From the NCBI RefSeq assembly GCF_013122565.1, contig NZ_CP053258.1: a DNA stretch of 64,000 nt. The stretch is one strand, 5' to 3'. The translations under genes and the position numbers were made by a program. The notes under the pieces are model-generated. The model saw only the letters and a list, made by a program, of their open reading frames with translations. It did not search any database and was not told where the DNA came from. This stretch comes from Escherichia coli (GTDB taxonomy: Bacteria; Pseudomonadota; Gammaproteobacteria; Enterobacterales; Enterobacteriaceae). Below, piece by piece: positions 7,677 through 37,498 of the stretch (its first letter is position 1; every line of letters starts with the position of its first letter).

Positions 7677-9153
<1,477 letters not shown>

Positions 9154-24992: not shown

Positions 24993-25085
24993 TTTGCGCC
25001 TGTCGGCAAAGGGATTTTTCTTCGCTTATTCCTAAATCTATTTCGCGAAGCTTACTGCGCCGACAGTCACCACGGACCATTTGCA

Positions 25086-33601: not shown

Positions 33602-33900
33602 TCCCCTTACAACATGGACTGATCCTCGCGGCAATCTTATTCGTTCTTGGCTTAACCGGTCTGGTTATCCGTCGCAATCTGCTGTTTATGCTGATTGGTC
33701 TGGAAATCATGATTAACGCCTCCGCACTGGCCTTTGTGGTCGCCGGAAGCTACTGGGGTCAGACCGACGGTCAGGTGATGTACATTCTCGCCATCAGCCT
33801 CGCGGCGGCAGAAGCGAGTATCGGCCTTGCGCTGCTGCTGCAACTTCACCGTCGTCGCCAGAACCTGAACATCGATTCAGTAAGTGAGATGCGCGGATGA
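33598..33900 (+). CDS. nuoK: NADH:quinone oxidoreductase subunit K (100 aa)
   Basis: Small membrane subunit; overlaps both neighbours (ATGA junctions). Confidence 0.95.
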
Positions 33901-35738
33901 ACATGCTTGCCTTAACCATTATTTTGCCATTGATTGGCTTCGTCCTGCTGGCATTCTCCCGTGGGCGCTGGTCTGAAAACGTCTCGGCGATCGTCGGCGT
34001 AGGCTCTGTGGGCCTGGCGGCGCTGGTAACCGCCTTTATTGGCGTCGACTTCTTCGCTAACGGCGAGCAGGCTTACAGCCAGCCGCTGTGGACGTGGATG
34101 TCAGTAGGCGACTTTAACATCGGTTTTAACCTGGTGCTGGACGGCCTGTCGCTGACCATGCTCTCGGTGGTCACTGGTGTGGGTTTCCTGATCCACATGT
34201 ACGCCTCCTGGTACATGCGCGGTGAAGAGGGCTACTCTCGCTTCTTCGCCTACACCAACCTGTTCATCGCCAGCATGGTAGTTCTGGTGCTTGCCGACAA
34301 CCTGCTGCTGATGTACCTCGGCTGGGAAGGCGTGGGCCTGTGCTCCTATCTGCTGATCGGTTTCTATTACACCGATCCGAAGAATGGCGCAGCGGCAATG
34401 AAAGCGTTCGTCGTGACCCGTGTGGGTGACGTTTTCCTCGCTTTCGCACTGTTCATTCTTTACAACGAACTGGGCACCCTGAACTTCCGCGAAATGGTGG
34501 AACTGGCACCAGCGCACTTTGCTGACGGCAATAACATGCTGATGTGGGCGACGCTGATGCTGCTGGGCGGTGCGGTCGGTAAATCTGCGCAGTTGCCGTT
34601 GCAGACATGGCTTGCCGACGCGATGGCGGGCCCGACGCCTGTCTCCGCGCTGATCCACGCCGCAACGATGGTAACCGCGGGTGTCTACCTGATCGCCCGT
34701 ACCCACGGCCTGTTCCTGATGACGCCGGAAGTTCTGCATCTGGTGGGTATTGTCGGGGCGGTTACGCTGCTGCTGGCCGGTTTTGCCGCGCTGGTACAGA
34801 CCGACATCAAACGTGTTCTCGCTTACTCTACCATGAGCCAGATTGGCTACATGTTCCTCGCGCTTGGCGTGCAGGCATGGGATGCGGCGATTTTCCACTT
34901 GATGACTCACGCGTTCTTTAAAGCGCTGCTGTTCCTGGCATCCGGTTCCGTCATTCTGGCCTGCCATCACGAACAGAACATCTTCAAGATGGGCGGTCTG
35001 CGTAAATCTATTCCGCTGGTTTATCTCTGCTTCCTGGTGGGCGGCGCAGCCCTGTCGGCACTGCCGCTGGTCACTGCGGGCTTCTTCAGTAAGGATGAGA
35101 TCCTCGCGGGTGCGATGGCGAATGGTCATATCAATCTGATGGTGGCAGGTCTGGTCGGTGCGTTTATGACCTCGCTCTACACCTTCCGTATGATTTTCAT
35201 CGTCTTCCACGGAAAAGAACAAATTCACGCTCACGCCGTGAAAGGGATCACCCACAGCCTGCCGCTGATTGTGCTGCTGATCCTTTCCACCTTCGTTGGC
35301 GCACTGATTGTACCGCCGCTGCAGGGCGTGCTTCCGCAAACGACAGAGCTGGCGCACGGCAGCATGTTGACCCTGGAAATTACCTCTGGCGTGGTCGCGG
35401 TGGTCGGCATTCTGCTGGCTGCCTGGCTGTGGCTGGGTAAACGTACTCTGGTGACCTCCATCGCCAACAGTGCGCCGGGCCGTCTGCTGGGCACCTGGTG
35501 GTACAACGCCTGGGGCTTTGACTGGCTGTACGACAAAGTGTTCGTCAAGCCGTTCCTGGGTATTGCCTGGTTGCTGAAACGCGATCCGCTGAACTCAATG
35601 ATGAACATCCCGGCTGTCCTTTCCCGCTTTGCAGGTAAAGGTCTGCTGTTAAGCGAGAACGGCTATCTGCGCTGGTATGTGGCATCCATGAGCATCGGTG
35701 CGGTCGTGGTGCTGGCACTGTTGATGGTACTGCGTTGA
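33897..35738 (+). CDS. nuoL: NADH:quinone oxidoreductase subunit L (613 aa)
   Basis: Antiporter-like membrane subunit. Confidence 0.95.
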
Positions 35739-35968
35739 GTTGTTGGCTGAGTGAATATACCCGGCGTTGCGCCGGGTCTGTGAACTAAGAATAAATTTTA
35801 GGTAACTGTTCCTGAAGTACAGGTGTCATCGGCGAAGTCAGACCGGATACCGCCAGCGCACAGCAACCGGAGCGTACTTAAGTACGTGAGGATTGCGAGC
35901 ACTGCCGGGATTCGGGCTGGCGAGTGAGATAGCCTGAGCAGGAGTAAATATAAGGGACATACTTAGCT

Positions 35969-37498
35969 ATGTTATTACCCTGGTTAATACTAATCCCCTT
36001 TATCGGCGGCTTCCTGTGCTGGCAGACCGAACGCTTTGGCGTCAAGGTGCCGCGCTGGATCGCGCTGATCACCATGGGATTGACGCTGGCGCTGTCGCTG
36101 CAACTGTGGTTGCAGGGCGGTTATTCACTGACGCAATCCGCCGGAATTCCGCAGTGGCAGTCTGAATTCGACATGCCGTGGATCCCGCGTTTTGGTATCT
36201 CTATCCATCTCGCCATTGACGGGCTGTCGCTGCTGATGGTCGTGCTGACCGGTCTGCTCGGTGTGCTGGCGGTACTCTGTTCGTGGAAAGAGATCGAAAA
36301 ATATCAGGGCTTCTTCCACCTCAACCTGATGTGGATCCTGGGCGGCGTTATCGGCGTGTTCCTTGCCATCGACATGTTCCTGTTCTTCTTCTTCTGGGAA
36401 ATGATGCTGGTGCCGATGTACTTCCTGATCGCACTGTGGGGGCATAAAGCCTCTGACGGTAAAACGCGTATCACGGCGGCAACCAAGTTCTTCATTTACA
36501 CCCAGGCGAGTGGTCTGGTGATGTTGATCGCCATCCTGGCGCTGGTTTTTGTTCACTACAATGCGACCGGCGTCTGGACCTTCAACTATGAAGAGCTGCT
36601 GAATACGCCAATGTCCAGTGGTGTGGAATATCTGTTGATGCTGGGCTTCTTCATCGCATTTGCGGTGAAAATGCCGGTGGTTCCGCTGCATGGCTGGCTG
36701 CCGGATGCGCACTCACAGGCTCCGACTGCCGGTTCCGTTGACCTCGCGGGGATCTTGCTGAAAACCGCCGCTTACGGTCTGCTGCGTTTCTCCCTACCGC
36801 TGTTCCCGAACGCGTCGGCAGAGTTCGCGCCAATCGCTATGTGGCTGGGTGTTATCGGCATCTTCTACGGTGCGTGGATGGCCTTCGCCCAGACCGATAT
36901 CAAACGTCTGATCGCCTACACCTCGGTTTCCCACATGGGCTTCGTGCTGATAGCTATCTACACCGGCAGCCAGTTGGCCTACCAGGGCGCGGTAATTCAG
37001 ATGATTGCGCACGGCTTGTCGGCGGCGGGTCTGTTTATTCTTTGTGGTCAGCTTTATGAACGTATCCATACCCGCGACATGCGCATGATGGGCGGTCTGT
37101 GGAGCAAGATGAAATGGCTGCCAGCACTGTCGCTGTTCTTTGCGGTGGCAACGCTTGGGATGCCTGGCACCGGTAACTTCGTCGGCGAATTTATGATTCT
37201 GTTCGGCAGCTTCCAGGTTGTCCCGGTGATTACCGTTATCTCTACCTTTGGGCTGGTCTTTGCCTCTGTTTATTCGCTGGCGATGTTGCATCGTGCTTAC
37301 TTCGGTAAAGCGAAAAGCCAGATTGCCAGCCAGGAACTGCCTGGGATGTCGCTGCGTGAGCTGTTTATGATCCTGTTGCTGGTGGTGCTGCTGGTACTGC
37401 TGGGCTTCTATCCGCAGCCGATTCTGGATACCTCGCACTCCGCGATTGGCAATATCCAGCAGTGGTTTGTTAATTCCGTTACTACTACAAGGCCGTAA
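35969..37498 (+). CDS. nuoM: NADH:quinone oxidoreductase subunit M (509 aa)
   Basis: Antiporter-like membrane subunit; preceded by a 230-bp intergenic gap. Confidence 0.95.
   Translation: MLLPWLILIPFIGGFLCWQTERFGVKVPRWIALITMGLTLALSLQLWLQGGYSLTQSAGIPQWQSEFDMPWIPRFGISIHLAIDGLSLLMVVLTGLLGVLAVLCSWKEIEKYQGFFHLNLMWILGGVIGVFLAIDMFLFFFFWEMMLVPMYFLIALWGHKASDGKTRITAATKFFIYTQASGLVMLIAILALVFVHYNATGVWTFNYEELLNTPMSSGVEYLLMLGFFIAFAVKMPVVPLHGWLPDAHSQAPTAGSVDLAGILLKTAAYGLLRFSLPLFPNASAEFAPIAMWLGVIGIFYGAWMAFAQTDIKRLIAYTSVSHMGFVLIAIYTGSQLAYQGAVIQMIAHGLSAAGLFILCGQLYERIHTRDMRMMGGLWSKMKWLPALSLFFAVATLGMPGTGNFVGEFMILFGSFQVVPVITVISTFGLVFASVYSLAMLHRAYFGKAKSQIASQELPGMSLRELFMILLLVVLLVLLGFYPQPILDTSHSAIGNIQQWFVNSVTTTRP

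Follow-up and report, generated by a model that had tools for sequence, protein, structure and literature searches.

MITEs such as Correia/NEMIS and RUP are small, often lie at the 3' ends of genes, are co-transcribed and form a long RNA hairpin (PMC3184786). Effects on mRNA processing and stability have been reported for repeats of this kind (PMC3184786). For example, an ERIC element creates an RNase E entry site, according to the summary of De Gregorio et al. (2005) given in PMC3184786. RSA/BEE95 repeats are cited in at least one passage of PMC3751351. sX9 is a small RNA of Xanthomonas that ranks in the top 20 of Rfam small RNAs by prevalence if all copies are included (PMC9029176). Such multi-copy prevalence would fit a repeat.

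The DNA analyzed here (the window, 64,000 nucleotides) is from Escherichia coli, with nearest strains such as O157:H7 and strain C, and contains nuo genes with an odd gap between nuoL and nuoM. Comparison of sequences shows that this gap is, for the most part, one copy of an ancient dispersed hairpin repeat, which most likely persists as a co-transcribed fossil. The explanation that best accounts for the whole gap, held with good confidence, divides it into three parts: a short lineage-specific hairpin, an old repeat copy of ~150 bp, and the ribosome-binding site of nuoM.

The nuoL-nuoM Intergenic Region

The nuoL coding sequence (33897-35738, plus strand) was taken from the list of open reading frames and is named nuoL in matching E. 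coli genomes. It ends with a TGA stop codon at 35736-35738, and the nuoM frame (35969-37498, plus strand), assigned from the same list and matching E. coli genomes, starts at 35969. Thus, the spacing of 230 bp reported by an earlier, sequence-only reading of this DNA is exact. That reading also described the operon as tightly packed. The remaining nuo junctions in the window are indeed overlaps or gaps of 2-46 bp, except for nuoB-nuoC, which at 93 bp (24993-25085) is the sole other sizeable gap of the operon. Compared with 723 complete genomes, the nuoL-nuoM gap is 99.6% identical, with one mismatch in 230. The only gap difference from strain C is at position 35824, where the window has T and strain C has C; the consensus of the repeat family reads GGCGT there.

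As a whole, the 230-bp gap folds with a z-score of -4.0. Open reading frames inside it are at most 40 aa long and are of the kind expected by chance, and a 65-aa minus-strand frame (35878-36075) extends into it from the nuoM side. The probable ribosome-binding site of nuoM, AAGGGA (35952-35957, plus strand), was assigned by sequence inspection and lies just beyond the base of a long hairpin; the K-12 allele has AAGGAA at the matching spot. On the nuo strand of the gap, a promoter scan found no sigma-70 promoter with -35 and -10 hexamers spaced by 16-18 nt, and no terminator-like site was found in the scan for these signals. A weak promoter-like match (ATAACA, 17 nt, TATATT; 9 of 12 positions) is present on the minus strand at 35975-35947. 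One such match was found and 0.5 was expected, which places it within chance, and the Enterobacter orthologue (L024) does not share its -10 hexamer. Transcription from this site would run antisense into the repeat, in the sX9 sense.

The GC-rich hairpin that had been placed at 35762-35780 exists, and its true position is 35759-35777 (plus strand). This element, hairpin 1, begins 21 nt past the nuoL stop and consists of an 8-bp G+C-rich stem closed by a 3-nt loop, ACCCGGCG-TTG-CGCCGGGT. It folds at -16 kcal/mol (z -3.6), and none of 200 shuffles is as stable. A role as an intrinsic terminator was rejected: the stem is followed by CUGUGAAC, with no U-run, and the terminator scan did not score it. 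The sequence of hairpin 1 is unique within the window and lineage-specific, and other lineages have unrelated hairpins at its position. Conservation of the position, but not of the sequence, hints at a post-nuoL hairpin under selection, independent of the big repeat.

Stem-loops past nuoL were also recorded locus by locus. Five lineages have a stable stem-loop, of unrelated sequences, in the 10-45 nt that follow the nuoL stop (z -2.4 to -4.7), namely the window (35739-35797), K-12 (L003), and loci L024, L055, and L041. REP-like units form the stem-loops of K-12 and L055, and the rest are unique hairpins.

The Long Hairpin and its Repeat Element

The perfect 14-bp palindrome CGTACTTAAGTACG highlighted by the sequence-only reading is real and occupies 35873-35886, a 1-nt offset from the position first given to it. 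It was rejected as a stand-alone signal, since the window holds seven perfect 14-bp palindromes compared with 3.9 +/- 2.3 in shuffles; the other six are at 8754, 10319, 16214, 43477, 50640, and 62296. The palindrome is instead the apex of an imperfect hairpin of ~140 nt (35807-35946), which folds at -59.7 kcal/mol (z -4.0). In this apex, CGTAC-TTAA-GTACG, family members almost always keep the GTAC stems and vary in the loop. The nuo-sense strand of the window copy folds 10 kcal/mol more stably than the opposite strand, and the family mean of this MFE difference is ~2 kcal/mol.

Family copies, a family profile, folding, and orthologues together delimit a miniature-transposon-like repeat element, an imperfect palindrome of ~150 bp at 35801-35950. 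Its conserved core of ~107 nt (35825-35931) is defined by alignment, covariation, and inter-genus identity, and is collinear with the 107-110-nt cores of Burkholderiales. Alignment with full-length enterobacterial copies places TTA (35798-35800) at the left and TAA (35951-35953) at the right position of a TWA duplication. These two flanks differ, and the duplication is not preserved in the window copy. With "+" orientation defined by the motif GTACGTGAG..TT..GAGCAC, the window copy is in "+" orientation and co-directional with nuo. The family profile detects exactly one copy in the 64-kb window (35822-35935, E 9e-24). Between the nuoL stop and this copy lie ~60 nt, which hold hairpin 1.

Distribution of the Repeat Family

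In many E. coli genomes, a second locus is matched by gap positions 82-172. Raising the search sensitivity gives 1-7 places per E. coli genome, and the K-12 pheM-pheS copy used as a query finds 1-8 (median 5). The K-12 derivative ER1709 has six detectable copies. One family copy lies between the pheM leader and pheS and another between qseE and qseG; both are fixed, being present in 5,425 of 5,426 E. coli genomes. Plasmids account for 11 or 12 places in all. On the E. coli plasmid pKTa005_1 (26230-28283, L008), the copy is found between RND efflux permease and acyltransferase genes. The RefSeq annotation of K-12 has no repeat feature at nuoL-nuoM or pheM-pheS.

The full-length consensus of the family is 144 bp plus flanks. 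This size and the six places in ER1709 fit the RSA (= BEE95) repeat of the 1990s E. coli literature, an imperfect palindrome of ~152 bp with six intergenic copies in K-12. The identity of the window element with RSA/BEE95 is offered as a lead, based on length and copy number.

Beyond E. coli, the core motif GTACGTGAGNNTTNNGAGCAC was scanned in one genome per species and occurs at no fewer than 120 places, compared with ~35 chance matches expected in the whole collection. Among the matches listed are many Enterobacterales, Aeromonas, Microbulbifer, many Burkholderiales (Polaromonas, Rhodoferax, Acidovorax, Paucibacter, Curvibacter, and others), unclassified proteobacterial assemblies, and two Chlorobi assemblies; several of the genomes among these matches have multiple copies. 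The homology spans the whole hairpin and not the motif alone. In every group the 107-110-nt core is collinear, and the outer arms vary by lineage.

Some occurrences have features of their own. Two assemblies labelled Chlorobiales/Chlorobium contain several copies of the core each (L064-L070, L127, L128), which may reflect true cross-phylum spread or binning contamination. Copies from Photorhabdus (L088, L132) and SZAS-93 (L043, L046, L051) have short extra insertions in one or both arms, which suggests nested events. Terminal peptides of the adjacent genes point to apparently recurrent sites, among them groES-groEL, downstream of groEL, and dnaN-recF in four genera.

Covariation and Homology to sX9

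Covariance analysis of the gap had been proposed in the sequence-only reading as a check on its structure. The structure of the window copy was projected onto 93 non-redundant cores in a core-only alignment; a mixed alignment with long flanks was too gappy. Covariation is strong. Standard pairs occupy 78% of cells compared with 23-38% when partners are slid, and 509 cells show double changes compared with 211 in shuffles, with none of 500 shuffles reaching 509. For example, pair 50-84 is found as CG (37), AU (27), and GC (27) and is unpaired in none of the cores. Similarly, pair 40-92 is GC (50) or AU (34), and pair 28-105 is GC (35) or UA (35). Among the internal loops, several are asymmetric yet conserved, such as GGA opposite GA beside the apex stem. 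G-U and A-C counts are 322 and 267, mostly from a few fixed positions, and this balance favors neither strand as the working strand.

An Rfam scan of the gap returned no family at threshold. Its top matches are chance microRNA hits and a weak match to sX9 (RF02228; 16 bits, E 3.4) at 35831-35887 on the minus strand, opposite to nuo. Burkholderiales copies of the repeat match the 76-nt sX9 model over the apex plus one arm, with E-values down to 2.6e-4. Because these relatives reach 31-41 bits, the weak match of the window copy is a true distant homology, established through the core alignment and lying below the curated threshold (16 bits for the window and 31-41 for its relatives, with a gathering score of 44). 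The literature yielded no account that places sX9 within a palindromic repeat. Given this link, many sX9 annotations may be repeat copies and not regulatory RNA genes.

Origin, Age, and Loss of the nuoL-nuoM Copy

Inverted ends, GAGCCTATCCCAGTAGGC... and ...GCCTAATGGGATAGGCTC, are common to the full-length enterobacterial copies, and ~14 of the 18 copies inspected have matching TAA/TAA or TTA/TTA flanks. Because TAA reads as TTA on the opposite strand, matching flanks represent a direct duplication and not an extension of the inverted repeat. One such flank is the TAA stop codon of qseE. The definition of a MITE used here is that of PMC3184786. Compared with its limit of ~200-400 bp, the element measures ~150 bp. 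It lacks a transposase gene, and it has terminal inverted repeats, a long stem-loop, and multiple dispersed copies. Its anatomy resembles that of a MITE, with terminal inverted repeats, 3-bp TAA/TTA duplications in well-preserved members, and no coding capacity. Evidence of mobility was sought in insertion polymorphism, and none was found in E. coli; the only polymorphism is the loss at nuoL-nuoM. A search for an empty site at qseE-qseG, as proof of transposition, found none, the copy there being fixed, and no partner transposase sharing the family ends was identified.

The same element is present in the same orientation between nuoL and nuoM in at least three other genera, as seen in Enterobacter sp. 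Bisph1, the MAG CTSoil_132, and Pantoea stewartii. These orthologous copies differ in both arms, and the changes are compensatory. Sequence conservation in the gap, which the sequence-only reading had made a test of its proposal, goes beyond neutral expectation: the core is 82-86% identical to that of the window, and four-fold sites of nuoM are 53-64% identical. Specifically, core and four-fold identities are 86% and 64% in Bisph1 (84% over nuo), 85% and 63% in CTSoil_132 (~84% over nuo), and 82% and 53% in P. stewartii (~78% over nuo). Since orthologues are shared and the core changes less than these sites, the copy is old and has evolved more slowly than neutral sequence. Selection on the nuoL-nuoM copy or gene conversion among copies could account for the slow change.

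Within E. coli, the 230-bp allele is found in 724 of 5,423 genomes, and the rest (~4,700, 87%) have a gap of ~163 bp. The K-12 gap does not align with the window gap and does align with the Enterobacter gap, relative to which ~125 bp are missing, including the whole core. What remains in K-12 are remnants of the outer arms, ...AATTCGTTGAAAATCCGGTCC TGACG GGACTTTTACAAGGAA... Because remnants of both arms are kept, the common E. coli allele is a deletion derivative and not an empty site. The two E. coli alleles represent gap lineages whose split is older than the species. The element would have been inserted between nuoL and nuoM before the enterobacterial genera diverged and inherited vertically from then on, and most E. 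coli lineages would later have lost it by internal deletion. The structure of the gap proposed by the sequence-only reading is thus conserved across genera, but the idea of a device specific to nuo is not supported: the core is a dispersed repeat, and 87% of E. coli do without it at this site. For the same reasons, the element is not a nuo-specific control element.

Orientation and Possible Functions

Genes are not arranged evenly around the family. Among the matches listed (L013-L132), a long open reading frame ends at the right end only of 52 copies, at the left end only of 11, and at both ends of 17 (p = 1.7e-7). Most copies among these matches are read in the sX9 sense directly past a stop codon. 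The nuoL-nuoM and pheM-pheS copies have the minority orientation relative to the upstream gene. Behavior inferred from other copies may therefore not transfer to the window copy.

An outer stem extends some copies. At Burkholderiales and SZAS-93 loci (such as L042, L047, L053, L084, and L110), the flanks add up to 18 bp of stem. This outer stem is partly copy-specific, with a mean self-complementarity of 13.3 of 18 compared with 9.8 for flanks paired across copies, and it often takes in the end of the adjacent gene, with its stop codon and final codons. Its cause could be the insertion target, palindrome extension by template switching, or selection.

As a retained repeat copy, the element would be transcribed within the nuo polycistronic mRNA and would separate the nuoL and nuoM cistrons by a hairpin of about -60 kcal/mol. 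By analogy with other intergenic repeats, this hairpin might make the stability of the nuoA-L segment independent of that of nuoM-N. We judge any such influence to be small, and the element to be essentially a retained fossil, because most E. coli do without it. We infer that it is immobile in E. coli and that any change it causes in the processing or stability of nuo mRNA at this junction would be modest at most, as for ERIC and REP.

The alternative that survives best, though we hold it only tentatively, is that the ~108-nt core is a selected cis-acting module, in the form of RNA or single-stranded DNA, that acts beside genes and would be working at nuoL-nuoM. Possible roles of such a module are in the control of translation termination, in the protection of mRNA 3' ends, or in the binding of a protein via its conserved purine-rich internal loops. 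It would account for a core that is nearly invariant across bacterial classes between lineage-specific outer arms, and for the conservation of asymmetric internal loops; however, the balance of G-U and A-C favors neither strand. The orientation bias (52 vs 11, p = 1.7e-7, among the matches listed) also suits a module of this kind, but at nuoL-nuoM the copy points the less common way and is set apart from the nuoL stop. Moreover, adjacency to stop codons is explicable by a TAA/TTA insertion target together with stop codons in the element ends. The partly copy-specific outer stems, paired with the last codons of the upstream gene, are consistent with selection, although template-switch correction can keep a palindrome complementary without it. 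Deep orthology at nuoL-nuoM, and apparently at dnaN-recF and groES-groEL, and change slower than at neutral sites argue for function, whereas the nuo operon still works in the 87% of E. coli that lack the nuoL-nuoM copy.

A more sweeping form of this proposal, which we consider unlikely, would make the core a widespread, unrecognized cis module at upstream stop codons that acts on termination or the fate of mRNA 3' ends. The ERIC apex would then be the same module tip, sX9 would arise from the module by processing, and the nuoL-nuoM copy would possibly be a degenerate instance. If a cis-acting module does exist, it is conserved from Enterobacterales to Burkholderiales, and possibly in Chlorobi, with an outer stem that pairs with the last codons. 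The cross-class conservation of the core and its oriented placement next to stop codons merit dedicated study.

Action of the element as DNA is improbable. A nucleoid protein, gyrase, or recombinase could bind it, or it could form a cruciform, as proposed for some REP/BIME clusters. The element is palindromic in DNA and is found in both orientations relative to genes, and its covariation, with balanced G-U and A-C, fits DNA hairpins equally well. Against this, no known protein-binding consensus was recognized in the element, and the orientation bias favors a strand-specific, transcription-linked effect or an insertion bias. Finally, a nuo-specific internal promoter or an independent small-RNA gene, as the sequence-only reading had suggested, is very improbable: relatives of the element overlap the Xanthomonas small RNA sX9 (PMC9029176) and the weak minus-strand match would read into it, but the nuo strand has no promoter-like site, the minus-strand match is within chance and loses its -10 hexamer in Enterobacter, no Rfam family reaches threshold in the gap, and the element is a dispersed repeat that most E. 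coli lack here.

On the preferred reading, the odd gap represents a retained repeat that varies among strains, and not a conserved point of control over complex I. Annotation of a promoter or small RNA in the gap is unwarranted without transcript data. The two alleles also provide a natural experiment, since 13% of E. coli strains have the -60 kcal/mol hairpin at nuoL-nuoM and 87% lack it.

Comparison with Known Elements

REP/PU/BIME sequences resemble this locus as intercistronic hairpins within operons, and in the K-12 allele of the nuoL-nuoM gap a REP-like unit takes the place of hairpin 1. However, REP units are ~35-40 bp long with their own consensus, which neither the 150-bp element nor hairpin 1 fits. 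BRE, the Betaproteobacterial/Bordetella repeat (PMC3110155), occurs in some of the same taxa and was rejected as a relative: the core motifs are absent from the BRE list and the sequences are unrelated.

ERIC/IRU elements (~127 bp) are a closer parallel. Like the family described here, they are low-copy imperfect palindromes of similar size, found in enterobacteria within intergenic regions that are transcribed, and their conservation is strongest at the center. The ERIC apex (GAGC-TAC, a 4-nt loop, GTA-GTGA) has 17 of 20 bases in common with the window copy, and GAGC occurs again ~7 nt on. The window element differs in its length of ~150 bp, and the family flank duplication is TAA/TTA, whereas ERIC-type elements have a TA motif (PMC3184786). 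Membership in ERIC, which calls for a match to its consensus (44-bp core plus flanks), was rejected on two counts. Blastn against two true ERIC copies gave E-values of 3.7 or higher, with no significant similarity outside the apex, and the family profile (nhmmer) found nothing in three true ERIC loci. The family may be a distant relative of ERIC or a case of convergence.

The sX9 model of Rfam differs from the repeat in that it spans half of the palindrome, and its match in the window is on the strand opposite to nuo. MITEs in general share with the family small size, terminal inverted repeats, the lack of an open reading frame, a long hairpin, and a frequent place at gene 3' ends, and the matching flanks of most inspected enterobacterial copies resemble their target duplications. 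Unlike a typical MITE, the family conserves its core over its ends, and does so across bacterial classes. The greater conservation of the core hints at a function beyond transposition. The family thus joins three seemingly separate things: a low-copy intergenic repeat of E. coli, the apex of ERIC, and sX9.
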